In this document: piece by piece, positions 1 through 54,771 of the stretch
How positions within the stretch are numbered: position 1 is the first letter of the stretch
Layout of the letters: every line of letters starts with the position of its first letter
Source of the DNA: Patescibacteria group bacterium
GTDB taxonomy: Bacteria; Patescibacteriota; Minisyncoccia; Phycocordibacterales; Phycocordibacteraceae
Reading direction: 5' to 3'
Length of the DNA: 59,925 nucleotides
NCBI GenBank assembly: GCA_018969385.1
Contig: JAGWYL010000003.1
Coordinates: 1 to 59,925 of the forward strand
The notes under the pieces: model-generated
What the model was told of the DNA's origin: nothing
Database searches by the model: none
What the model saw: only the letters and a program-made list of their open reading frames with translations
Position numbers and translations under genes: made by a program

Positions 1-90
1 GCGGCCCGCGGTTCGAATCCTCCACCTTTCGGCACAAAGCCAGAAAAAGCCGGACATACCGTGTCCGGCTTTTTCTGGCTTTGTGCGCCG
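1..90. repeat. Copy 1 (truncated by window edge) of a tRNA-associated hairpin element
   Basis: Exact 90-bp match to 1366-1455. Contains a perfect 25-bp inverted repeat (32-56/62-86, loop TACCG) and a GGTTCGAATCC T-arm-like motif. Confidence 0.95.
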
Positions 91-112
91 TATGGCACGA
101 GGTTAGAACGGC
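82..112. repeat. 31-bp direct repeat, left copy
   Basis: TGTGCGCCGTATGGCACGAGGTTAGAACGGC matches 724-754 at 28/31; the pair brackets the kinase gene. Confidence 0.9.
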
Positions 113-113
113 A

Positions 114-704
114 CTAGCTATTCAGGGTGAAAGGCTTTAATCCGTCTATGACGACATCGGCATAGCTTTTTGGGTTATCTCTCGCAAAATATTCGTCTTC
201 CTCCTTAAGCCAGTTTTTCCATTCCGCCTCAACTTCCTTTTGAGTTTTTCCTGTAGCAAGGTCGCGTTCCGTCCCCCGCCTGAAACAGACATCCTCCGGT
301 GTATCGATGAAAATTGCCATACTTATGTACTTTCGAAACTCCCGTCTTGAAGAACTCACACCTTCAAGAATCATAATAGGGGTTACAGGCTTATCGATTA
401 CGGGTTCGGGTTTATGGTTAGGCCACCATTTTGATCGCGGATAACTAATATTAGTTGCACCGGCCATAATTGGCTCAAAGACTCTCTCTATGATAATTGG
501 CCACCAGTTAAGCGGGTTATCCCAACTTGCAAAATCATCCTGACGGATAACCTCAGCGTTCAATACCTCCGAAAGTAGACCTGCAAATGTTGATTTACCA
601 GAACCACCATGCCCGTCTATGGCGATGAAAAGTACATTGCCGACTTTCGGTGATTTTTTTGCGAGAGATTCTCTTATTCGAGCAAGTAGCTCCGAATCGC
701 GCAT
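114..704 (-). CDS. P-loop nucleoside/uridine kinase-like protein
   Basis: IAIDGHGGSGKST Walker A, DDF, ILEGV motifs. Start moved to MRDSELL (704). Visibly more AT-rich than the backbone. Confidence 0.8.
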   Translation of the reverse strand: MRDSELLARIRESLAKKSPKVGNVLFIAIDGHGGSGKSTFAGLLSEVLNAEVIRQDDFASWDNPLNWWPIIIERVFEPIMAGATNISYPRSKWWPNHKPEPVIDKPVTPIMILEGVSSSRREFRKYISMAIFIDTPEDVCFRRGTERDLATGKTQKEVEAEWKNWLKEEDEYFARDNPKSYADVVIDGLKPFTLNS

Positions 705-723
705 TGTCAAAATATACACTATC

Positions 724-754
724 TGTGCGCCCTCTGGCACGAGATTAGAACGGC
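724..754. repeat. 31-bp direct repeat, right copy
   Basis: TGTGCGCCCTCTGGCACGAGATTAGAACGGC; begins with the same TGTGCGCC as the tRNA-Tyr 3' end on this strand. Confidence 0.9.
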
Positions 755-766
755 TATGGAGGGTGT

Positions 767-1297
767 ATGATTCTGGGTATGAATGACTTGCACGCGAGAT
801 GGTCGCATAGATGGCTATCGCCGAAGGCTGAGGCGCGAAAGTCCGCAATTCACGGCACAGGAGTTTTTGCAGTTGAATCCATTAAACAGGGCGAGACCGT
901 CGGCGTGCTTGGCGGGGTCGTCGTGCCCGTGAGCGACATACGTGAATATTGGAAAATCATGGGGCATGTCGGAATTCAGATCGACGATGGATTCTTTATC
1001 GTTCCGACGACACGCGACGAACTCGAAAGCAAAGGCGTTTTTAACCATTCGTGCGATCCGAACATTGGGTACAGCAATAGCATTACCTTTGTCGCAATGC
1101 GAGACATTGGTGCCGGTGAAGAGCTCGTGTTTGACTACGCGTTCAATGAGACCTATCACAACCCTATGGAATGCCATTGCGGCACCGCCCACTGTAGGAA
1201 GATGTTTACGGGAAACGACTGGAAACTGAAAGAATTGCAGGACAGATACGGCGCGTACTTCTCGCCCTATCTCCGTTCGAAGATTGGCAAAGCTTAG
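767..1297 (+). CDS. SET-domain lysine methyltransferase with post-SET cysteines
   Basis: HGTGVFA, NHSCDPN, RDIGAGEELVFDY, CHCGTAHCR motifs; GGAGG upstream. Confidence 0.9.
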   Translation: MILGMNDLHARWSHRWLSPKAEARKSAIHGTGVFAVESIKQGETVGVLGGVVVPVSDIREYWKIMGHVGIQIDDGFFIVPTTRDELESKGVFNHSCDPNIGYSNSITFVAMRDIGAGEELVFDYAFNETYHNPMECHCGTAHCRKMFTGNDWKLKELQDRYGAYFSPYLRSKIGKA

Positions 1298-1299
1298 GT

Positions 1300-1318
1300 G
1301 TGCGCCGGGTAGGATTCG
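1300..1318 (-). repeat. 19-bp duplication of the tRNA-Tyr 3' end (att-like)
   Basis: GTGCGCCGGGTAGGATTCG is identical to 1448-1466. Confidence 0.95.
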
Positions 1319-1365
1319 CCTCTTGGCCTGCTGGCCTCGAGACCTTTGTGCCCTCTTCGGGCACT

Positions 1366-1455
1366 GCGGCCCGCGGTTCGAATCCTCCACCTTTCGGCAC
1401 AAAGCCAGAAAAAGCCGGACATACCGTGTCCGGCTTTTTCTGGCTTTGTGCGCCG
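1366..1455. repeat. Copy 2 of the tRNA-associated hairpin element
   Basis: Identical to 1-90; 25-bp perfect stem at 1397-1421/1427-1451 abutting the tRNA 3' end. Confidence 0.95.
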
Positions 1456-1532
1456 GGTAGGATTCGAACCTACGTAGCCGCAAGGGCGACTGGTTTACAG
1501 CCAGTTGCGATTGACCACTCCGCCACCGACGC
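1449..1532 (-). tRNA. tRNA-Tyr (GTA)
   Basis: Acceptor stem GCGTCGG/CCGGCGC, D arm TGGCGGAGTGGTCAATCGCA, anticodon arm ACTGG-CTGTAAA-CCAGT, long variable arm, GGTTCGAATCC T arm. CCA not encoded. Confidence 0.95.
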
Positions 1533-1561
1533 AATGAGGCTGAGTATAGCCGAAACCCGAA

Positions 1562-2818
1562 CTATCTTCCAGTCTTGAGCACGAGAACATCACGCTTCCC
1601 TTTCCGGACAAGCGCGTGGCCGCCCGGGAGGTCGCCTGCGTAGATTTTCTGGTCGGGGTCGGTAATGGTCATGCCGCCAAGCGTGATGCCCTTCCCTTCG
1701 ATGAGCCGCCGCGCGTCCGACTTCGATGTCGCGACCCCTCCCTCGACGAGCACCTCCGCGAGCGAGCGTCCGGTATCAAGGTCGGACCTTGATACGGTGA
1801 CGGAAGGAGCCTCGGCGAGGGCGACGGCGAGGGCGTCACGGGAAAGCTCCGTGAACGGCGTGTCGCCGAACAAGGCGTCCGTGGCCGCGGCCGCGAAGGC
1901 GGCCGCGGCGGGTCCGTGGACGGCTTCGGTGACGAGGCGCGCGAGCGTTTCCTGCGCCTCGCGCGCGGACGGATCCGCGGCATGCTTCTCCATGAGCGCC
2001 ATGATTTCTCCGATCGGCAGGTCGGTGTACACCATGAAATACCGCTCAAGTCCCGCATCAGGCAACTGCAGCCAGAACTGATAGAACCGGAAGGGCGACG
2101 TCTTCTTCGGGTCGAGCCACACGGGGTTGCCCTCGCTCTTGCCGAATTTCTTGCCGGCCGCGTCCGTGATGAGCGGTACGGTGAGAGCATACGTCTCGGC
2201 ACCGGTCTTCTTCCGAATGAGGTCGACGCCGGAAAGAAGATTCGTCCATTGGTCCGTGCCGCCCACCTGGAGGTCGCAGCCATACTTCGCATGGAGCATC
2301 AGGAAGTCGTAACCCTGGAGGAGCGCGTACGTGAACTCGGTAAAGGAGATGCTCTCGTCCGGCGTCGCAAGGCGCTTCGCGATGAGCTCGCGCTTCACGA
2401 GGTCGTTGACGCTGAAATGCTTCGCGACATCGCGGAGGAACGGGATGAGCTTCAGCTTTCCGAGCCAGTTCGCATTGTCCACCATCGTAAAGCGGGTCTG
2501 GTGGAGGATTCCTTTCAGCTGCTTCTTGAGCGCCTGCGCGTTCTTCGCGAGCGTTTTCTCGTCAAGGAGCGTCCGCTCCCCCACTTCGCGCGGGTCGCCT
2601 ATCATCCCCGTGCCGCCGCCGACGAGGAAGATGAGCTTGTGTCCCGCTTCCCCGAGGCGCTTCATGAGGAGGATGGGCACCAGGTGGCCCACGTGAAGCG
2701 AGTCGGCGGTCGGGTCGATGCCGAGGTACGCGGTCCGGGGCTTTCCCAATATGGTCTCAAGCGGCGCGGAGGTCTGTTCCGCGAGTCCGCGCGCCACGAG
2801 TTCTTCGGCGAATGTCAT
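1562..2818 (-). CDS. tyrS: Tyrosine--tRNA ligase
   Basis: YLGIDPTADSLHVGH, LQGYDF, QVGGTDQWTN, KFGKS motifs and C-terminal S4 domain; start at MTFAEEL. Confidence 0.97.
   Translation of the reverse strand: MTFAEELVARGLAEQTSAPLETILGKPRTAYLGIDPTADSLHVGHLVPILLMKRLGEAGHKLIFLVGGGTGMIGDPREVGERTLLDEKTLAKNAQALKKQLKGILHQTRFTMVDNANWLGKLKLIPFLRDVAKHFSVNDLVKRELIAKRLATPDESISFTEFTYALLQGYDFLMLHAKYGCDLQVGGTDQWTNLLSGVDLIRKKTGAETYALTVPLITDAAGKKFGKSEGNPVWLDPKKTSPFRFYQFWLQLPDAGLERYFMVYTDLPIGEIMALMEKHAADPSAREAQETLARLVTEAVHGPAAAAFAAAATDALFGDTPFTELSRDALAVALAEAPSVTVSRSDLDTGRSLAEVLVEGGVATSKSDARRLIEGKGITLGGMTITDPDQKIYAGDLPGGHALVRKGKRDVLVLKTGR
1773..1795. repeat. Perfect 11-bp-arm palindrome inside tyrS
   Basis: GTATCAAGGTC-G-GACCTTGATAC; encodes VSRSDLDT in frame. 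Confidence 0.7.
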
Positions 2819-2889
2819 ACGGGCTAGTATACCGCATTCGCCGATACGGGAATGCGCGGGCACGCAAGAAGCAGTAGTATACCGGTATC

Positions 2890-3561
2890 ATGAAGCGTCC
2901 ATTCGGCACCATTCTGAAATATGAGGACATGAAGGATGTTCCTGCCGCTGACAGCGGCGAGTCGCTCGTCGAAGTCGGCACGTATGACCCAGCCATCCTT
3001 GCCGAGTATGAGCAGCATGACATGCGTCCGTACACGGGCGAGCAGATATTCGTTCGCGACACGCTCGCACGGAAGCTGGCGAACGTTAATGACGCGCTTA
3101 TGCAAAGCGGATTGCGTCTGCGCGTGGTGTACGGCTATAGGCATCCGGAGGTGCAGACGCTTTATTTCAACCGACGCAAGGATGCACTGCGCAAGGAACG
3201 TGCGCGCCTCTCCGAAGATGAACTTACCGCACTTGCACACAACTACACTGCCGAGCCGTCCCTTGGCGGCCATCCGATGGGAGCGGCCGTCGACCTGACT
3301 ATGGCCGGAAAGGATGGCATGCCGGTTGATATGGGAACTGCCATATCGGACTTCAGCACGGAAAAGATCGTCACTGATGCAGCCGGCCTGACCAGCGAGC
3401 AGGTGCGGAATCGGCGCATGCTTCATGACGCGATGGTTGCCGAAGGATTCGCGCCATACTACGGGGAGTGGTGGCATTTCTCGTATGGAGACAAGGAGTG
3501 GGCGGCATTTTACGGTAGGCCATCCGCACTGTTCGCGCGGGTCAATTTCAAATTCCCGTAG
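2890..3561 (+). CDS. D-alanyl-D-alanine dipeptidase (VanX/DdpX-like, M15)
   Basis: VVYGYR, GGHPMGAAVDLT and EWWHFSYGD zinc-peptidase motifs. Confidence 0.88.
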   Translation: MKRPFGTILKYEDMKDVPAADSGESLVEVGTYDPAILAEYEQHDMRPYTGEQIFVRDTLARKLANVNDALMQSGLRLRVVYGYRHPEVQTLYFNRRKDALRKERARLSEDELTALAHNYTAEPSLGGHPMGAAVDLTMAGKDGMPVDMGTAISDFSTEKIVTDAAGLTSEQVRNRRMLHDAMVAEGFAPYYGEWWHFSYGDKEWAAFYGRPSALFARVNFKFP

Positions 3562-3576
3562 TACAGTAGTACGCAT

Positions 3577-4929
3577 ATGAAGTCAGTCGCAGATACTTGG
3601 AGTCTCGGTGACGGTTCAGTGAATACCGAGCGGTATTCCCCTTCTCTAGCGGGCACGCTGCTCGTCAACGACGGGACGGCTGTCCACGACGTCGCTGAAC
3701 TGGTTGCCCGGTACGGTTCTCCGCTTGAGATTTTCATTCCGGATACGCTTTCGACACGCGTGCGTGCGGTTCGTGACGCGTTTGATGCAGAGATTCGAGC
3801 CGCGGGATACCGCGGCTCTTTCGCATACCACTATCCGATGAAGGTGAATCAGCGGAAGGAGTTCGTCATGACTGCGGTTCGCGCGGGCGCGAACCTGGAA
3901 ACCTCGTCTCGCAACGAGCTCGCGCTCCTGAAGCGCGCATTCGATGACGGTACGCTCCCGAATTCGGTTCGTGTGCTCTGTAATGGCCCCAAGACGGAAG
4001 CATACCTCGCGCTTGCGCTCGAGATGCATCGCGAGGGGCGCAGCGTCACGCCGATAATCGAGAGCGAAGAGGAGCTGCGCGCCCTCGAAACGTATGACGG
4101 ACCCGTCGGCGTCCGTGCGGACATGAAGCTCAAGATAAGCTCTCATTGGGACAAGAAACATAACCGCTTCGGACTTCCTGAAGATCAGCTGCTCTCGCTT
4201 CCAGCGATACCGAATCTCACCATCGTTTCGTATCACATCAGCTCGCAGATCGAGTCGCTCGACGAAGTCGTGAAGCCGGTCGAGCACATCGTCCAGGTGT
4301 ATGCCGCCCTGCACAAAAGGAACCCCGGGCTTACCACCGTGAACATCGGCGGCGGCGCGGGCATCCCGTATAAGAAGAAGCCGCTCTATTCTATCGAGGA
4401 GCTCGCGGCGGGCGTTGTCCATGCGTGCGCAAGCGCCGCGAAGGCCAATGCAGTGGAGCAACCGAACATCATTTGCGAGTGGGGCCGCTTCATGGCGGCA
4501 CCGGCACAGCTTACGGTCTTCAAGATCATCGGCGCGAAGCGCATCGTCGATGCGCCGGCGAAAGCCTGGTACATCATAGACGGCAGTTTCATCACGGACC
4601 TTCCCGATACCTGGTCCATCCACCAGCGCTGGCATTTCGTTCCCGTCAACGGGCTTGGAAGTGCGGGTCAAACGCCGGTCTGGTTCGCGGGAAGTTCGTG
4701 CGACAGTGATGACGAATACGTACCGGACGAGGGCGCGATAATGATGCCGCCGCTTAGCGACTCCGCACTCTATGTAGCGGCACTCGACACGGGTGCATAT
4801 CAGGACTCTCTTTCTTCGCGGCACTGCCTCCTTTCCCATCCGCGCCGCATTGCCTTGGCGGGCGGACACGTGAGCGAGCACGATGCACCGGATACGCCGG
4901 TGTCCATTGGCGCTCTTTTCGGCTGGTGA
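3577..4929 (+). CDS. PLP-dependent fold-type III basic amino acid decarboxylase (arginine decarboxylase-like)
   Basis: YHYPMKVNQ PLP-lysine motif (SpeA-like YPxKxNQ), NIGGG, CEWGRF, SCDSDD, DTGAYQ. Confidence 0.8.
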   Translation: MKSVADTWSLGDGSVNTERYSPSLAGTLLVNDGTAVHDVAELVARYGSPLEIFIPDTLSTRVRAVRDAFDAEIRAAGYRGSFAYHYPMKVNQRKEFVMTAVRAGANLETSSRNELALLKRAFDDGTLPNSVRVLCNGPKTEAYLALALEMHREGRSVTPIIESEEELRALETYDGPVGVRADMKLKISSHWDKKHNRFGLPEDQLLSLPAIPNLTIVSYHISSQIESLDEVVKPVEHIVQVYAALHKRNPGLTTVNIGGGAGIPYKKKPLYSIEELAAGVVHACASAAKANAVEQPNIICEWGRFMAAPAQLTVFKIIGAKRIVDAPAKAWYIIDGSFITDLPDTWSIHQRWHFVPVNGLGSAGQTPVWFAGSSCDSDDEYVPDEGAIMMPPLSDSALYVAALDTGAYQDSLSSRHCLLSHPRRIALAGGHVSEHDAPDTPVSIGALFGW

Positions 4930-7641: not shown

Positions 7642-8349
7642 ATGGATACGAAGAAGACCATAGGGGTCCTTGGCGGCATGGGCGCGGCCGCATCCGCTGA
7701 TTTCTATCAGCGGCTCGTCGAGCTTGCGCAGAAGGAATTCGGCGCGGTCAGGGATTCGGACTTCCCTCCCATGCTCATCTATAATCTTTCCATACGCGAT
7801 TTCGACGAGACCGGCGTCGTAGATGCTGACAGCGTCATCGCTCAGCTCGTCGCGGGTGTGCGGACACTTGAGTCCGCCGGTGCCGATTTCTTCGTCGTGC
7901 CCTGCAATACGGTACACCGCTTCGCGAAGGAGATGAGCGACGCGGTTTCCATCCCGCTCGTGAGCATCATCGACGCCACCGCTGACGCGGTACAGGACGA
8001 TGGCCTGAGGAAGGTCGGTATTCTGAGCTCACAGACGACGCGGAACGAATCGTTATATGAAAAGGCGCTCGCGTCTCGCGGCATAGCGGTGCTCCACGCG
8101 GATGATGCGGAGCAGGCGAAAATCAATGAGGTCATCGCGCACGTCATGCGGGGCACGAACGGCGCCGAGGACGTGGCGGCGCTTGCGGCAATCGCGAACC
8201 GCTTCAAAGCCGAGGGCGCTGAGGGCGTCGCGCTCGGCTGCACCGAATTGCCGCTCGCCATCACGCAAAAGGACGCCGCTCTTCCGCTCTATGGCTCGAC
8301 GGAAATCCTGGCCCGCGCCGCGCTCAAGTACTCGCTCGGGACTGCGTAG
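7642..8349 (+). CDS. Aspartate/glutamate racemase family protein (RacX/YgeA-like)
   Basis: GVLGGMG, PCNT and GCTE catalytic cysteine motifs. Confidence 0.92.
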   Translation: MDTKKTIGVLGGMGAAASADFYQRLVELAQKEFGAVRDSDFPPMLIYNLSIRDFDETGVVDADSVIAQLVAGVRTLESAGADFFVVPCNTVHRFAKEMSDAVSIPLVSIIDATADAVQDDGLRKVGILSSQTTRNESLYEKALASRGIAVLHADDAEQAKINEVIAHVMRGTNGAEDVAALAAIANRFKAEGAEGVALGCTELPLAITQKDAALPLYGSTEILARAALKYSLGTA

Positions 8350-8433
8350 CGGCGCAGCGTCTCGACAAGCAGGATATGGCGTGCCATAGTGCTCGCGGAG
8401 CGCTATTGCTTCGCACACATTGGAGTACGTCCG

Positions 8434-9446
8434 ATGCAACGAAATCAGCATCCTGTACAGCAGTTGGCGACGGGCGAGAAGCTGTCCGTCACCTCCTATA
8501 GATTCTCGAGTTCACAGCACGGGCCGAAAGTCTATCTCCAGGCGAATATCCACGGTCCTGAGGTGCTCGGCACCGCAGTGCTCACGAAGCTGCTTCCCTG
8601 GTTGCACGAAATGGAAACCAAGGATATGTGCGGTTCCGTGATAGTCGTGCCCTGCGCGAACCCCATGGCCGTCCAGCAGACGGCATACAACAGCATGATA
8701 GGGCGCTGGAACGGCAGGAGCGGCATGAACTGGAATCGCATCACACCCCTGTCGGCGAATGGAGCGGCCATCTGGAGGAGCGGCAGTTTTACGAAAGGAT
8801 CAAGAACGCTCCAAACCCGTCGATAGAGAAGAAGCTTGCTGCGACCTTGCGCGTCTTATCCTGGAGTGCCGATTACGTAGTGGATATCCACACGACGGGC
8901 AATGAGAGCATCGTGCACCTTTTCACGTTCTCGTGGATGGATGAGGCGTTCGCGAGACTCGGCTGCCCGGTACACATCCACATCGATGACGACGGACCGG
9001 CGGGCGCATTCGACGAATCCCATGTGCTTCCGTTCCTAAAATCGATGTCGAGGGACCTCATACCGAAGGCGTGCACGTGGGAGATCGGCTCGCATGGCAG
9101 GATTCCGTCCCAAACGCTGCTCGACCGCAGCGTCGTTCTCAAGCTATGGCTCCGTTCTGTCTGGGACGGAACCACTGCACAGTCTAATGCGCGGTCACTG
9201 TCGAAGCCGGCAGCATTCAAGCGGCTCGGGCATCTGCATGCGCCGTTCGGGGGCTACTACACGTGGCAGAAGAAACCCGGTAGCGCGGTCAAGGCTGGAG
9301 AGACGTATGCGTACGTTTTCCAACCCTGGAACGGGATACGCCGGAAGGCCGTCGCCGAGTTCGACTTCGTCTTGCTCGGCATCTATGGCGCCGACGCGAC
9401 CGCAGCGCACGAACAGATCGGCTGTTTTGCCGCCGACCCGGTGTAG
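8434..9446 (+). pseudogene. Succinylglutamate desuccinylase/aspartoacylase (M14-like) gene split by a frameshift
   Basis: First frame has QANIHGPE, PCANP and NWNR. The second frame continues with DYVVDIHT and a C-terminal biotinyl-like segment. Frames join around the C4 run at 8746-8749. Confidence 0.8.
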
Positions 9447-9582: not shown

Positions 9583-10572
9583 TTACTTCACCCATGCCGT
9601 GCCGCTTCTCCCCGGAAGACGTCCTTGCTTCGAGAAGCTCAGACGTTCGAAGCATTCAGAGTTTCGGAGTGCTTCCGGCAGTCCGTCGAGCGGGACAATT
9701 GCACACGACGCGCCCCGGTTAGACGCTTCTGCGAGAAATGCGTCCAGCATAGCGGCGAGCGCTTCCTCGCCGTCGAAGCGCGAGTAAGCGACATTCGTCA
9801 TGACAGCGGTGCCTTCCTGGAACGAGTACAGCGCGCAGCCGTGTGTCGCCTCATCGACCGTAAAGACACGGTACTGCTCAAGAGTGTTCATGATACGCTC
9901 GCGGCCCTGATCCCCGGCGTAGTCTTCGCCGAGGAAGAGCTTGATTTCCGGTACATCAGTAAGCTCGGCCTTCCTGACGAACTTGAAGCGCCGCATGTCC
10001 GAGTGCACGAACGTTCCGGAGCCGCTCGCCGTCAGAAGTTCCGCGAGAAGCGCGTGTGGATGGTGCGCATCGAACAGATGAACTGTCTCCACCGCGCGTT
10101 CGCAGGCGTTCGCAGCAAGGTCGAGGGTCAGTGTCCAGTCCCGGCTCACTTTCCCGTCGGCAATAAGCTTACGGACTTCCGAAACCGAGGCGTTATTGAG
10201 AACCGTGCCGTCCGCGAGCGTGCAGTTGCCCTCGCACAGGAGGATGAGCTTGTGCAAATTGCACTCATTCGCGATACCGGCGACGTACTCCTTCTCGTTG
10301 CCCCGGACGACGGACTGGACATAGATGGAGTCGGGCAGACCGTTCCAGAACATAGCGTCCATGGCTTCCGCGACGATGACAGGAACGCCATTCTCAAGGA
10401 GAAGCTCGATGTCCTCGCTGAGGATGGCCATATCATCGGAGTGGATTTGCGCGATGCCGTACGGCATGATGAGCACGTTACGGCCGCGCGTGTTGCGCAG
10501 ACAGTGGAGCGCTGCGCGGACCGCTGCAGTGTCGTCGGCGTAGGCGCGTCGCCGCGCTTGCTTTTCAGACAT
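9583..10572 (-). CDS. Degenerate ArgA-like protein (amino-acid-kinase domain plus GNAT-like domain)
   Basis: VHLFDAHHPHALLAELLTASGSGTFV, then VRKAELTDVPEI; AAGGAG SD. Confidence 0.7.
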   Translation of the reverse strand: MSEKQARRRAYADDTAAVRAALHCLRNTRGRNVLIMPYGIAQIHSDDMAILSEDIELLLENGVPVIVAEAMDAMFWNGLPDSIYVQSVVRGNEKEYVAGIANECNLHKLILLCEGNCTLADGTVLNNASVSEVRKLIADGKVSRDWTLTLDLAANACERAVETVHLFDAHHPHALLAELLTASGSGTFVHSDMRRFKFVRKAELTDVPEIKLFLGEDYAGDQGRERIMNTLEQYRVFTVDEATHGCALYSFQEGTAVMTNVAYSRFDGEEALAAMLDAFLAEASNRGASCAIVPLDGLPEALRNSECFERLSFSKQGRLPGRSGTAWVK

Positions 10573-10719
10573 CAGATACTCCTTCGCCCTATCAGAGGGC
10601 TTGACTGAGAGTTACGGGGAGTTTGGACGACATGAGTTGGAAAATATCGTCCGAAAACACTTTACACCGCACGTCAAGCACTGTCCACTTGACATGCGGT
10701 CATGATGTCGTGCCAAAAA

Positions 10720-12342
10720 TCAGGCGACAAGCGGCAATTCGACGATGAAGGTGGAGCCCCTATCCTTCCCTTCCGACTCGGCGCGGATGGTACCGCCGTG
10801 GGCAGTCACGATGTTCTTCGCGATGAAGAGCCCGTAGCCGGTCGAGTGGACGTTTATCTTTTGCGATTCCTTGCCGTGGCCGCCTTCCGTGAAGAGGCGT
10901 GCCTTGTCCTCGTCCGTGATGCCGACGCCCGTGTCCTTGACCGCGAAGACGGCTTTCCCGTCCTTTCTCGAAAGCGTGACATTGATGCTTCCCGAAGGCG
11001 TGTAGTTGATGGAGTTGTCCACGAGGTTCCCGAGTACGTGATCGCCGAGCTCCACCTTGTCGGCGGATACGGTATACGGCTTACCCGCTTCATCGGCTGC
11101 GTACGTGAGCGTAAGGCCCTTCGCATCGGCGTGCTCCCTGAGCTTCGCGACCGCTGCGGCTGCGAGCGCATCGAGGTCGAGCGGCTCCTTCGTATACTCC
11201 ACGGTCCCCTTCTTCTGGTTCGAGGCCTTGAGGATCTGCAGAACGGACGTCACGCTGTCACGCGATTGCGTGAGGGCGCGGTCGACGAACGGCTTCATGC
11301 CGTCCGGCAGCGCGCCGAAGTCGCCCTCGGAAAGCGCCGCGAAGGCGCCCATGTCCTTCGTGAGGAAGTTCTTCACCTCGTGGCTGATGAAACGGATGAG
11401 GTTTTCCTGCCGCTGGTTCGTGTCTTCAAGTTCTACGGCGAGCTTCTCTATCCGCTCCCGCTGTTCCACCTCCTTTACGACGCCGCGCGCGAGAAGAAGG
11501 CCGACGATGAGGATGAGCACGAACAGGCTGGTCCGGAAGAGTATGAGGATAGGATCGGTGGTGAAGATGAGCTCGAGCAGTGTCGCTATCGCGAGTGCGG
11601 ACACGAGGAGCGCCGTTCCGATCTCTTTCACGTTCAGCACGCGTCCCGTATAGATCGCGTATGCCGTCAATCCGATGAACGGGAGCAGGAATAGCGTCCC
11701 GAACGCAACGAAAGAGGAATTGCCGAGAAATGCGGGGAGTATGAAGCTGAACGCGAGTATTAGCAGTATCGTGGCGAACGTGCCGAGCAGTATCAGGCGG
11801 TACGGCCTTCGCTCCGCGCCCTGCGCACGGAGCGTCTTTTGCACCAGGAAGAACAGAGCGCCGATATCGAGCATGAGAACCAGGATGCCGAACAGGATGA
11901 TTCCGGGGCCGTTGACGACCTGGGTTACCTGCCCGTTTACGGAAAAGCTGCTGACCGCCGTGAAGACGAGCGGCGTGAGCGTGATGACCGAAACGAGGAG
12001 CGTCGCTGGAAGCACGGCGAGACGATACCAGCGAGGCAAGGGATGCTCCCGGTCCGGAAAGACGAAGAAGAAGGTGAAGAGCGAATAGGCGAACCAGACC
12101 GCGGTGAACATGATCATCCGCAGGAACCACAGCACGATAAGGGGGCTTGAGGACTGGTAGATCGCGTAGTTGAAAAGGCTCCAGACGACCGACGTTCCCG
12201 TGAGCGCCAGGAAGAAGCGATGCGTGATGCTGCCCATGTCGCTCAGATACACGACGAAACCCGTCGATATGAGTATCGCGGCTACCGCACCTACGGAAAG
12301 GAGCCCCGCGTTAACGTCGATTGCCAGGACCCCGTTCAGCAT
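10720..12342 (-). CDS. Sensor histidine kinase with N-terminal multi-TM domain
   Basis: Many hydrophobic helices, H-box ISHEVKN, N-box NLVDNSINYT, DTGVGI, STGYGLFIAK; start MLNGVL. Confidence 0.93.
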   Translation of the reverse strand: MLNGVLAIDVNAGLLSVGAVAAILISTGFVVYLSDMGSITHRFFLALTGTSVVWSLFNYAIYQSSSPLIVLWFLRMIMFTAVWFAYSLFTFFFVFPDREHPLPRWYRLAVLPATLLVSVITLTPLVFTAVSSFSVNGQVTQVVNGPGIILFGILVLMLDIGALFFLVQKTLRAQGAERRPYRLILLGTFATILLILAFSFILPAFLGNSSFVAFGTLFLLPFIGLTAYAIYTGRVLNVKEIGTALLVSALAIATLLELIFTTDPILILFRTSLFVLILIVGLLLARGVVKEVEQRERIEKLAVELEDTNQRQENLIRFISHEVKNFLTKDMGAFAALSEGDFGALPDGMKPFVDRALTQSRDSVTSVLQILKASNQKKGTVEYTKEPLDLDALAAAAVAKLREHADAKGLTLTYAADEAGKPYTVSADKVELGDHVLGNLVDNSINYTPSGSINVTLSRKDGKAVFAVKDTGVGITDEDKARLFTEGGHGKESQKINVHSTGYGLFIAKNIVTAHGGTIRAESEGKDRGSTFIVELPLVA

Positions 12343-12344
12343 AG

Positions 12345-14357
12345 CTATATTGGAAAGGTAGCACGATAATGGCCGTGATTGTAGAAGTTGATAACCGCAT
12401 CGGGGTGAAGCGCGGCAGCCTCGGCTCTGGAGTTGAATCTGACTGACGAAAAGACGGCGGCATTGAGGAACACGGGACTGTGCCACCCGGTCAGGCTGAG
12501 GAGCGGAAGGACTATCTCGTTACGGTATCCGTCATAATTGAGCGTACGAGAGGCGAAGTCGCGCATCTCCGCTACGAGCCGCGCTCGCTCTCCTTCCGGG
12601 AGATGATGGAGGAAGAGGACGGTCATCGCGATGTCGAAAAAATGCGGAGGAAATGCCGTCGGGAGCGTGAAGATGTCGTTATCCGCGGCTATGACCAGTA
12701 TCGAGTCGCCTGCTTCCCGCTCGTAATCAAGCAGCGCCTCCTTCGTGAGGCCGCTCACATGGATGAAACGGACACCCGGAAGATTCCGCAGGTTCCTTTC
12801 AGCATAGGCGCGCGCGCCCGAAGATATGTCGAATCCGACGATGGTGACGGGGCAGTGTGCGTCGTGTGCCCCAAGCCGTTCGATGAACTGTCGCTCCGCT
12901 TCCATGCTGCCACTCCCGAGCGAAGCGATGCGAAGGCGCGTACCGCCCGGCACGCGTGCTGCGGATTCGGTAAGGTAGCCGACGACCGGCTCTATGATTC
13001 CCGGCCGCGGTCTCCGTTCGATTTCCGACATCTTCTCGTGGAAGATCTCGTCGAGTTCGGGAAGCAGCTCGTTTATTTCGAGCAGGTGTTCGCGCCGTAT
13101 GCGTTTACGCGCGCCGTACAGCCATGTAAGGTAGCGTAAGGGTGAGCGGAGGGATTCGAAGAAAAGGATATTCTGTTCCACGGCGTACTGCTGATCCGGC
13201 AGGCCGTACGAAAGCATGCCGAGTTTCGCTGCAACCGCGTCGAGCTGTGCGCGCCGTTCGGTAGGAACAGCGGACGCCTGTGCGCGCCCGTCAACGGAAC
13301 TTTCCGGCACCTTCCGATAGCTTACCTCCGTCGGCGGCGCGGACTTTCCGATGCGGAAGACGAGGATGGGCGTCGTGCCGGCGGGTACGAGCTGCTTGAT
13401 TGCTTCATAGGCGCCGCCGATACGGGACCTGTCTGCATTCCCAAACAGCCGCGCGACCGCCGGGATGTCGAGGGAGCGAGCAAGGAACAGGAGACCGGTG
13501 ACAATCTGCACCGAATAGCCGTTCGCGGCGGCGCCGAGCCATGCGCGCTCAAGCGCGCGTCCGGTCTCAAGATAGGCAGAGCGGTCAAGCGTGCTGCCGT
13601 AGAGCACGACGAGCGCGGACGCGCTCGCATCCTGCTTCGCGTTCGTTTCCGCGACGAGGGTCGGGAAGCCGGCGAGAGAAAGGAGGCGGGCGACCGGCCA
13701 GTAGCGCAGGATAGCGAAGAGAGCCTTTGCGGGCGGCGGAAGCTCCAAGGTGTCGATGTGCAAGCCGGGCTCGCCTGCCCGATTCCTTGCCGCAGACCAG
13801 AAGATGCTCCCGAAGAAAAGCGCGTGCAGCGGCCGGTTGGACAGCGCCGTCTCCTCCATCACCGTGAGCGCGCGCGCGGCGCGCTCCATGCGCTCGCGTT
13901 CCTCTATGAGGGCGATACCGACTCCAGACTCGGAACCCCTCACAGCATCCCTAAGCGCCTCGCGCATCGCATCCGAGAGCGGCGCGACCGCATACGCCTT
14001 CCGGTTCGTGTGGCGCTTCAGGATGGAACGGCGCAATGCAGCCTCTTGCGCGCTCGGTTCGCCGCCCGAGGAAAGCTCAAGCGTAGCTACGCGCTCCCCT
14101 TCCGCATGGTACGTCACGCGCGGCAGGAAGCCTTGCGAGAGGGATTCCAGCCGCGCGTTCTCTATAGCGGCGCCGAGCGCGATGAGCGTGCCGCTTCGTT
14201 CGAAATTCAGGAGCTCATTGTCGAGTTCGGGCCGATAGAAGAAGTCGATTGCGGACCCGCGGACCTCGAACCGCCACGGCTGCGAATTATCGCCGGACGG
14301 CGCGGCGGCGGCGGCTTCAAGTATCGCTCGCAGCTTTTCCGGAGGTATGCCGGCCAT
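12345..14357 (-). CDS. Nitroreductase-family domain fused to a class I SAM-dependent methyltransferase
   Basis: AAPSGDNSQPWRF, RHTNRKAY, TGRALERAWL in the N half; IASLGSGS, VGFDIS, FDIAMTVLFLHHL in the C half. Confidence 0.85.
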   Translation of the reverse strand: MAGIPPEKLRAILEAAAAAPSGDNSQPWRFEVRGSAIDFFYRPELDNELLNFERSGTLIALGAAIENARLESLSQGFLPRVTYHAEGERVATLELSSGGEPSAQEAALRRSILKRHTNRKAYAVAPLSDAMREALRDAVRGSESGVGIALIEERERMERAARALTVMEETALSNRPLHALFFGSIFWSAARNRAGEPGLHIDTLELPPPAKALFAILRYWPVARLLSLAGFPTLVAETNAKQDASASALVVLYGSTLDRSAYLETGRALERAWLGAAANGYSVQIVTGLLFLARSLDIPAVARLFGNADRSRIGGAYEAIKQLVPAGTTPILVFRIGKSAPPTEVSYRKVPESSVDGRAQASAVPTERRAQLDAVAAKLGMLSYGLPDQQYAVEQNILFFESLRSPLRYLTWLYGARKRIRREHLLEINELLPELDEIFHEKMSEIERRPRPGIIEPVVGYLTESAARVPGGTRLRIASLGSGSMEAERQFIERLGAHDAHCPVTIVGFDISSGARAYAERNLRNLPGVRFIHVSGLTKEALLDYEREAGDSILVIAADNDIFTLPTAFPPHFFDIAMTVLFLHHLPEGERARLVAEMRDFASRTLNYDGYRNEIVLPLLSLTGWHSPVFLNAAVFSSVRFNSRAEAAALHPDAVINFYNHGHYRATFPI

Positions 14358-54293: not shown

Positions 54294-54771
54294 AGGAAAG
54301 ACGCTTAGCCGGGTAATGCTGGCGCGTCGTGTATCTATAGACACTGAACCGCATGCCAGCTGGTCTTGCGACCCGTGACCCTTTCGGACCACGACCCAAC
54401 GAAGGAATGGCTGAACATGCGGTTCAGTGTCTTCGTTGGGTTTTCTTGGCCATGCCTACGGTTTAAGCCGTAAGTTTAGGCCACTCACCTATAAATCTTA
54501 TCATGTGACTAAAGAGAACCCTATGCACTAGGGTAAAGTCCATAAAACACGATTTGCGATTATGCACTGGAGTAAATATCAGACGATATGTTTTGATCCG
54601 ATTGTTACTTACTCTTGCTAGCTTTAGCGGTTTTGAGAGCCAGCCGTTTTGCTTCCCGCTTTCGTCCACCCCTCCAAAGCGTCCTATTGTCCGGTGGCGG
54701 GAGTTTGATAGTGAAGTTGAACGGAATCCCCTTCCCTCGCCCTGAGCCTAAAAATTGGCCGCTAGAGAGCA

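Follow-up and report, generated by a model that had tools for sequence, protein, structure and literature searches.

The 59,925-bp contig JAGWYL010000003.1 of a Patescibacteria group bacterium (NCBI assembly GCA_018969385.1), which was analysed over its entire length and is called the window below, carries two small genes, one for a P-loop kinase and one for a SET-domain protein, behind its tRNA-Tyr gene. They are compositionally foreign single-gene units (the GC content is 0.448 for the kinase gene and 0.513 for the SET gene, versus 0.614 in the remainder of the window), and are bounded by repeats related to the tRNA's 3' end. The two units are probably cassettes delimited by attachment-type sites of a tRNA-targeting family of large serine recombinases (LSRs) that occurs throughout the Candidate Phyla Radiation (CPR), with no recombinase encoded nearby, and they probably do not form an integron. 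All conclusions about the mechanism are computational.

The tRNA is encoded on the minus strand, and the features of the locus are listed in its orientation, from the conserved anchor gene towards the first nucleotide of the window. Sites marked LF (long-form) resemble an extended tRNA end, and U denotes a tRNA-linked repeat unit.

1562-2863, minus strand: tyrS, the tyrosyl-tRNA synthetase (TyrRS) gene, conserved anchor (Pfam tRNA-synt_1b, E = 1e-76)
1448-1532, minus strand: tRNA-Tyr (GTA), directly downstream of tyrS on the same strand (ARAGORN; Rfam tRNA, 61 bits)
1299-1455, minus strand: U2, tRNA-linked repeat unit
1397-1451: perfect hairpin in U2, 25-bp stem and 5-nt loop (arms 1397-1421 and 1427-1451)
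1299-1318, minus strand: copy of the tRNA-Tyr 3' end that closes U2 (20/20 identity with 1447-1466)
724-1298: SET cassette
767/779-1297, plus strand, antisense to the tRNA: SET-domain gene, cargo of cassette 2 (Pfam SET, E = 1.7e-12; P0001)
725-751, minus strand: LF-B, long-form site GTTCTAATCTCGTGCCAGAGGGCGCAC, core of the 31-nt repeat 724-754
82-723: kinase cassette
114-704, minus strand, in the direction of the tRNA: uridine-kinase-like P-loop kinase gene, 196 aa, cargo of cassette 1 (Pfam PRK/AAA_18/AAA_33; P0121)
83-109, minus strand: LF-A, long-form site GTTCTAACCTCGTGCCATACGGCGCAC, core of the 31-nt repeat 82-112
1-90, minus strand: front 90 nt of U1, exactly equal to 1366-1455, with its hairpin at 32-86

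In the orientation of the tRNA the order is tRNA-Tyr, U2, SET cassette, LF-B, kinase cassette, LF-A, U1, a CsgG-like gene and trpS, the last two located on an overlapping contig described below. The two 31-nt repeats are 90% identical and bracket the kinase gene, as an original prediction, made from the letters of the window, had stated. The true 3' end of the tRNA-Tyr reads GTTCGAATCCTACCCGGCGCAC. The true start of tyrS is probably the ATG at 2818, and the database gene call for the SET gene begins at 779 (172 aa). Exact-protein look-ups returned no match for the SET protein with the start at 767, for the kinase taken as 114-707 (a wrong start) or for the 418-aa TyrRS. The relatives of this TyrRS, 60-74% identical, all come from metagenome-assembled genomes (MAGs) of Paceibacteria/Kaiserbacteria-type CPR bacteria, and by its sequence the host is a Paceibacteria/Kaiserbacteria-like member of the CPR.

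The LF sites belong to a family with a conserved sequence. A loose pattern of the LF shape, run over about 1.3 Mb of loci fetched for comparison (designated by L numbers), matched almost only true tRNA-Tyr ends, LF-A, LF-B, and two sites of L020. A degenerate LF pattern matched 13 metagenome contigs, where only a few hits are expected by chance according to our own rough estimate. In total, the LF core recurs in 15 other CPR contigs (13 found by the pattern, L020 through its TyrRS, and L100 through its LSR), with the 27-nt consensus GTTCYAAYYTCGTNCCANACGGCGCAC in genomes of 35-54% GC; conservation of the sequence extends over genomes of 35-61% GC. Wherever the tRNA-Tyr is present on the same contig, as in L088, L090, L093, and L094, the LF lies behind it on the same strand; in L091 and L098 it immediately precedes trpS. 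The chromosomal flanks that follow the distal LF sites are mutually unrelated.

Paired LF sites, 0.5-0.9 kb apart, are found in L087, L090, and L094, and in L020 the order is tRNA-Tyr, a GDSL-lipase gene, LF, a PIG-L gene, LF, and a terminator, with the genes tightly packed between the sites. These four loci are tidy arrays of one or two genes that share the boundary motif and differ in cargo. Across five arrays the units measure 0.53-1.1 kb, the open reading frame (ORF) starts 21-42 nt past the core, and ends 2-32 nt short of the following LF. All sites point in the same direction as the tRNA, as does most of the cargo. The cargo on the LF contigs includes genes for DUF5680, TfoX_N, alpha/beta hydrolase, DNA methylase, AIPR, and HD proteins. 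A sigma-70-like promoter for the kinase gene is found across the cassette junction (711-740, minus strand), with the -35 box (GTGCCA) inside LF-B and the -10 box (TATATT) in the arm beyond it; -10-like boxes after the core are also seen in L020, L090, and L094, and several units have promoter-like boxes just past the core.

The LF and the tRNA end have the same outer GTTC.AA motif and the same GGCGCAC end, and differ by 5 extra nucleotides between them: from GTTC.AA to the end of the common core there are 27 nt in the LF (about 18 sites) and 22 nt in the tRNA end. In serine integrases both site types carry the zinc-ribbon-domain (ZD) motif, which in attB is shifted by 5 bp towards the centre relative to attP, and attB as a whole is shorter by about 10 bp (PMC3783163). 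The two spacings fit this offset rule, so that the tRNA end would behave as a B-type (attB-like) and the LF as a P-type half-site. In L096 a Tyr-type LF unit (899-1411, minus strand) lies behind a tRNA-Leu(taa) that ends with CGGGCAC, versus GGCGCAC in the LF. This single case suggests that the crossover takes place at the terminal AC, as for serine recombinases (the shared core is otherwise 7-8 nt), and that a second tRNA may occasionally be used as the target.

The connection with LSRs is seen in two complete elements. In L088 a 6.8-kb element extends from the end of the tRNA-Tyr to the LF; its first gene, convergent with the tRNA-Tyr and overlapping it, encodes a 514-aa LSR (Resolvase, Recombinase, and Zn_ribbon_recom domains), and is followed by genes for a Rep protein and a nuclease. 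The 4.7-kb element of L100 was reached independently, through a recombinase 83% identical, and runs from the tRNA-Tyr through an LSR gene (Resolvase and Recombinase domains) and a Rep gene to the LF, after which core genes follow; its arm on the tRNA side matches that of L088. LSR homologs also adjoin the tRNA-Tyr in L021, L022, and L099. The family counts over 3398 members, many annotated as CPR, and other members are encoded beside tRNA-Gln and tRNA-Leu genes, to which they are convergent. In L101-L103 the LSR gene is at 10001-11509 and the tRNA-Gln at 11449-11520 (L101 coordinates), and in L104 they are at 10001-11548 (LSR) and 11579-11661 (tRNA-Leu).

Some further features of LSR-bearing loci were recorded. 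The L101-type element is dense in genes of the defence type (DpnI, Mrr-NTPase, ThsB-TIR, a BsaWI-type restriction-modification pair, and a zeta toxin). In L021 a 138-nt inverted repeat (11397-11524 and 13843-13978, 87% identical) brackets the LSR region behind the tRNA-Tyr, and the LSR element of L099 carries genes of the APH and AadA_C families of aminoglycoside-modifying enzymes. No relatives of the LSR were found in viral contigs. In the literature, cryptic inovirus-like elements with serine recombinases are mentioned for the CPR in general terms, and no paper was found on cassette stacks made by serine recombinases at tRNA-Tyr in CPR bacteria.

The presence of full 4.7-6.8 kb elements with an LSR at the same site also allows a different origin of the two units. 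The serine-recombinase sites would be real, and the units would be deletion remnants of two larger LSR elements that integrated successively and then lost the recombinase, the Rep gene, and most of the cargo. The P' halves of the cassettes, which are not conserved, speak for such an origin, as does the resemblance of some flanks next to the tRNA, in genomes that lack an LSR (L090, L005), to retained LSR-side arms. On the other hand, random loss should not repeatedly spare intact single ORFs within 2-42 nt of the sites, as is seen in five independent arrays, and the second integration would still need a usable attB after the first, so the problem of stacking remains. We consider deletion remnants, the strongest of the rival readings, rather unlikely, and favour the capture of the genes as single cassettes.

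The flank of the tRNA-Tyr is a genuine hotspot of variable genes. In 35 of 40 relatives the tRNA-Tyr lies close behind tyrS, and the conserved order beyond it is (pyrD)-trpS-asnS-pepA-scpA-scpB. The interval between the tRNA and trpS holds 0-4 small, unrelated genes that differ by genome; the comparison of gene content behind tRNA-Tyr, proposed with the original prediction, therefore gave a varying and not an identical set. No homolog of the SET or kinase gene is present at the tRNA-Tyr locus of the 80 relative loci fetched.

Rearrangements of other kinds are also observed around this tRNA. In 4 of 35 relatives (L010, L012, L029, and L032) the tRNA-Tyr runs opposite to its usual direction with respect to tyrS, which means that within this clade the tRNA gene too has been flipped. 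About 12 relatives have inserts of 0.5-1.6 kb on the 5' side of the tRNA-Tyr. In L026 a gene for a PaaX/Cas2-like protein is inserted between tyrS and the tRNA-Tyr and is flanked by two direct copies, 45 nt long, of the tyrS 3' end (11194-11238 and 12122-12166, 98% identical); a 38-nt palindrome in this place is partly repeated too.

The closest homolog of the window kinase, 70% identical, is encoded in L099 (region 645-4594) just 5' of a tRNA-Tyr; it is not inside the LSR element of that locus, which sits at that tRNA's 3' end. SET homologs elsewhere (L082-L085) are not at tRNA-Tyr and have no LF. The close SET homologs in other CPR contigs show a recurring DUF1653-SET neighbourhood (L083, 4552-5837; L084, 423-1195; L085, 541-1915), which also includes an AAA_18 P-loop protein in L083 and another SET gene in L085. 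The P-loop kinase beside the SET gene of L083 was considered as kin of the window kinase and rejected, as it is not a close relative.

The tRNA-Tyr is followed by the U2 unit, whose front part had been noticed as a 90-bp element with a perfect 25-bp stem present twice in the window. Both copies are there, 1-90 being identical to 1366-1455, with stems 32-56/62-86 and 1397-1421/1427-1451 and 5-nt loops, and the hairpin occurs in the window only these two times, versus 0 expected by chance. The exact repeat of 90 nt stands, and only its extent has to be revised, as it is the front part of a unit of ~157 nt. U1 and U2 are 88% identical overall; their last 92 nt agree completely, and the part in front of these to about 72%. 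On the overlapping contig U1 extends 66 nt further to the left and closes there with a copy that matches the tRNA end in 15 of 16 positions. In the orientation of the tRNA, U2 consists of the 25-bp hairpin, an inverted copy of the acceptor and T-arm, a small hairpin, and finally the 20 nt that repeat the tRNA 3' end. The original prediction had recognized both the inverted copy of the T-arm (1375-1386 versus 1459-1470) and the duplicated tRNA 3' end (an exact 20-nt repeat, 1299-1318 = 1447-1466), and the element and the tRNA end do fold as one long hairpin, as was proposed there (1299-1475, minus strand, -105.8 kcal/mol, z = -9.7). The small hairpins of U1 and U2 differ by three compensatory base-pair changes (GTGCCC/GGGCAC versus GGCGCC/GGCGCC). 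Within the long hairpin, the inner part GCCGGACA-loop-TGTCCGGC lies between A5 and T5 and looks like an intrinsic terminator of the tRNA-Tyr that would work in both directions.

Units of the same architecture are found in relatives. In L017, L038, and L025 a long hairpin lies right after the tRNA-Tyr, and its outer stem takes in the 3' end of the acceptor (GGCGCACA ... TGTGCGCC); the stem sequences are unrelated between these genomes. The full U architecture (a spacer or hairpin, inverted copies of the acceptor and of the T-arm, further hairpins, and a direct copy of the tRNA 3' end of 15-21 nt) is present in L003, L008, L029, and L093, and likewise in L025; the matching end copies of L003, L025, and L029 are 15-21 nt long. 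The consensus fold of five U-type units has 42 pairs, 13 of them with compensatory changes, and in its closing stem the inverted acceptor copy pairs with the tRNA-end copy at the terminus. The units are ~155-175 nt long (L003, 11910-12064; L029, 11537-11703, minus strand; L008, about 8292-8443), L093 carries two copies on the minus strand (after 6050 and after 3206), and one U hairpin has the loop CUGUAAG, which resembles the anticodon loop of tRNA-Tyr. The U-type unit behind tRNA-Tyr thus appears to be a conserved structured RNA.

Searches with the hairpin and with U itself gave no known family. Rfam models run on U in the window, L003, L008, and L029 detected only the tRNA, with no family reaching its gathering score, and hits of miRNA and LOOT models on the hairpin were dismissed as far below theirs. 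(A LOOT RNA, Rfam RF03000, is present elsewhere in the window, at 54362-54482 on the minus strand, with 81.9 bits versus a gathering score of 46.4; it is unrelated to the cassettes.) An exact search for the hairpin with a free loop had no match in metagenome contigs, in viral contigs, or in 100 related loci. A REP-like or dispersed terminator, or a shared mobile element, was therefore rejected: the element, whose scattering at unrelated sites would have spoken against the original prediction, has two copies in 60 kb and none in the collections searched. A hidden second tRNA or tmRNA end at 1299-1391 on the plus strand received no support from ARAGORN or Infernal. The idea that the inverted tRNA-end copy supplies the B' half of an attB was also rejected for linear DNA, as this copy lies 21-45 nt from the core.

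The tRNA-linked repeats (TLRs) of Escherichia coli are defined by their place immediately downstream of a tRNA or rRNA gene and by a final stretch of 18-19 nt identical to the 3' terminus of this gene (PMC8144298), and U2 (20/20) and U1 (15/16) agree with this definition. As in the E. coli TLRs (for example, the units of the tyrT-tyrV operon and rrA/rrB/rrF), U is directly downstream of the tRNA, ends in a copy of its 3' end (18-20 nt in TLRs), is associated with a terminator, and occurs in one to several copies (PMC8144298). Unlike them, U has inverted acceptor and T-arm copies, shows no similarity in sequence or in Rfam, and in the window its two copies are separated by inserted genes. The 90-nt element is thus probably the front part of a TLR-like unit that would act at the RNA level and not a cassette delimiter. 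The conserved structure of U (13 of 42 pairs covarying in the L003-type units, and the three compensatory pairs between U1 and U2) is compatible with a role as RNA. The hairpin was originally taken to delimit the cassettes; it belongs instead to the terminator-like unit downstream of the tRNA, which is duplicated on both sides of the insert, as it is in L093.

An RNA role could be extended to the whole locus, with all copies of the tRNA end being processing or stability signals in a tyrS/tRNA-Tyr read-through transcript, multiplied by unequal crossing-over and not by site-specific recombination. The agreement of U with the TLR definition, the conserved fold of its relatives, and the constant orientation of the sites with mostly co-directional cargo are in line with this, and for U it may well hold. 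The LF sites do not follow: they are 5 nt too long to mimic the tRNA end, keep their sequence despite the range of GC content, bound the LSR elements, and flank unrelated foreign genes, of which the SET gene is antisense to the tRNA. As an account of the LF sites and cassettes, signals in a transcript are very unlikely.

The original prediction described single genes captured one at a time behind the tRNA in an integron-like array. Of this, the foreign single-gene units with boundaries related to the tRNA end are borne out, and the enzyme and site of the integron type are not. In such a platform a tyrosine recombinase or HUH nuclease would capture the cassettes at the tRNA 3' end, with the long hairpin as a folded attC-like site; the single-gene architecture, the perfect long hairpin, and the common core of 7-8 nt, which would suit the overlap region of a tyrosine recombinase, are in its favour. 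No integrase was found in the window, in agreement with the prediction, by a partial check for LSRs (tblastn) and for the box-II motif of tyrosine recombinases, and on either flank there is no such motif or integrase and the flanking genes are of the housekeeping kind. The hairpin is not located between the cassettes, only after the tRNA end and after LF-A, and relatives have non-homologous hairpins in the same place without cassettes. The cassette boundaries (83-109 and 725-751) are not palindromic, and L096 argues against an identical overlap of 7 nt. The boundary motif closes elements that encode serine and not tyrosine recombinases (L088 and L100) and has the 5-bp offset of attP and attB half-sites, which argues against a tyrosine recombinase or HUH nuclease as the driver. 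We regard an integron-like platform as extremely improbable, and retain the cassettes bounded by LSR sites.

The region to the left of the window is available from a second contig. Contig JAGWJQ010000013.1 (NCBI assembly GCA_028865695.1; L081) carries the same SET and kinase genes and matches window positions 1-1454 with 100% identity over 1454 nt (L081, 9223-10676). It ends within the second copy of the repeat, and the window starts within the first; the same 1454 nt were deposited twice, at the ends of two contigs that can be merged across the locus. Left of U1 this contig has a CsgG-like lipoprotein gene and then trpS-asnS-pepA-scpA-scpB, so that the array, which was expected to continue to the left, stops at the second repeat unit. 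A tyrosine recombinase or HUH nuclease had been suggested as something to look for there; the left contig has no box-II motif, and no recombinase is present in its 9 kb of left flank.

The way the two contigs end raises the question of an assembly artefact, in which the 1365-bp loop (repeat, kinase, and SET genes) is misplaced, collapsed, or extrachromosomal, and the 90-nt duplication comes from the handling of repeats by the assembler. That one contig begins in one repeat copy and the other stops in the other copy, with the overlap of 1454 nt at 100% identity, is what such an artefact would give, and a graph X-R-loop-R-tRNA fits equally well an empty chromosome with a circle. The unique junctions are, however, crossed independently by both contigs, the same kind of layout is seen in L093 and L020, which come from other studies, and the U copies differ beyond the identical 92 nt, so they are not one collapsed sequence. 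An artefact is highly unlikely on these grounds.

The arrangement in the window, with cassettes bounded by LSR-type sites, can be explained by the following course of events. The 92 nt that come after the tRNA are also found after LF-A. This puts the insert between the two copies of U, at the point where the tRNA-end copy closing U2 would have met the beginning of U1, and the target of integration would have been the U copy, not the tRNA gene proper. The kinase cassette would have entered this junction first, and so have created the attR-type site made up of LF-A and U1. Next, the same B half would have received the SET cassette, leaving LF-B with the arm 706-724 as an internal attP-like junction between the cassettes, and at 1299-1318 an attL-type junction with a B-type half-site next to the SET cassette. 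Both integrations would be carried out in trans by an LSR encoded elsewhere, with recognition dominated by the B and P halves, which would make the B half reusable and let the cassettes stack; reuse is proposed because the right-hand halves are barely conserved on both sides. The layout of the window (tRNA, U with its end copy, element, LF, and U) is repeated in L093, where the flank attached to the end copy of the first U is one that, in L021 and L090, immediately borders true tRNA-Tyr ends, so the end copy of U can serve as an integration point.

Several observations weigh against this explanation. Canonical serine integrases do not recombine attP with attL, and stacking therefore needs a relaxed specificity. 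The right-hand (P') halves have an inverted motif in 5 of 17 sites versus 11% in controls, that is, only a weak symmetry, and the end copy of U lacks the full GTTCGAA motif. An uninterrupted tandem of two U units, which the preferred history assumes, is not found in the relatives, and the SET gene is inverted within its unit. No LSR gene was detected by tblastn in the 60-kb window or in the 9 kb to its left, and complete elements with both LSR and LF were seen only in L088 and L100. Finally, both contigs break at the repeat, and the copy number of the 1365-bp loop thus rests on the path chosen by the assembler.

A more general idea, which we put forward tentatively, is that CPR bacteria might carry a counterpart of the integron based on serine recombinases. 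The LSRs would read one half-site of each partner (the 3' end of tRNA-Tyr and the 27-nt cassette site), the site on the tRNA side could be reused, and single-gene cassettes with their own promoters could stack one by one, with U offering additional insertion points that leave the tRNA connected to its own terminator.

In its working the system would be closest to the composite islands of the staphylococcal cassette chromosome (SCC), a resemblance in mode and not in membership. SCC elements, inserted at orfX/rlmH by the LSRs CcrAB and CcrC, likewise use the extreme 3' end of a single conserved gene as their target, and recombinase-less 'pseudo-SCC' elements exist beside complete members, with varied accessory and defence cargo (PMC6243372). 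Tandem elements bounded by repeats of the target end are also common to both, with two units in the window and likewise in L020, L090, L094, and L087. The present system differs from SCC in that it would target a tRNA gene, or a copied tRNA end, in CPR bacteria, has single-gene units of 0.5-1.1 kb instead of elements of tens of kb, and is linked to a recombinase family that is only distantly related, by shared Pfam domains.

The sites themselves are similar to those of phage serine integrases (A118/LI, Bxb1, and phiC31) in having two types with a common short core and the distal motif 5 bp nearer the centre in attB (PMC3783163); attB is also shorter than attP, and the integrase gene lies beside one end of the integrated element. 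The phage enzymes canonically recombine only attP with attB and leave one element per site, whereas several P-type sites are stacked here and the right-hand half-sites look unconstrained. To our knowledge, tRNA 3' ends are not the usual targets of serine integrases. They are the target of genomic islands with tyrosine integrases, which are bounded by copies of the tRNA end as well; those islands have exact repeats of the tRNA end and a tyrosine integrase, whereas the enzymes linked to the LF are serine recombinases, the distal repeat has a 5-nt insertion with respect to the tRNA end, and the shared core is only 7-8 nt. With integrons (IntI, attI, and attC) the arrays have in common mostly co-oriented single-gene cassettes, a recombination site at the 3' end of each, and stacking next to a fixed anchor site downstream of a promoter. 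They differ in the lack of IntI and of a folded palindromic attC, in sites of the serine-recombinase type, in the tRNA end as the anchor, and in that several cassettes appear to carry their own promoter.

We know of few described routes of gene gain for CPR bacteria, which have tiny genomes. A defined hotspot behind tRNA-Tyr, with recognizable 27-nt site scars, would explain variation at the strain level in these organisms. The cargo at the LF sites includes methylases, an Abi-type protein, hydrolases, the kinase, and the SET protein, and the scars offer a simple route to such cargo in metagenomes, where the repeats of the tRNA-Tyr locus split MAG assemblies precisely at that locus. The U unit is a candidate conserved structured RNA next to tyrS and tRNA-Tyr. 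The LSR family itself, with its short tRNA-based sites and possibly a tolerance of one arbitrary half-site, may be of interest for genome engineering.

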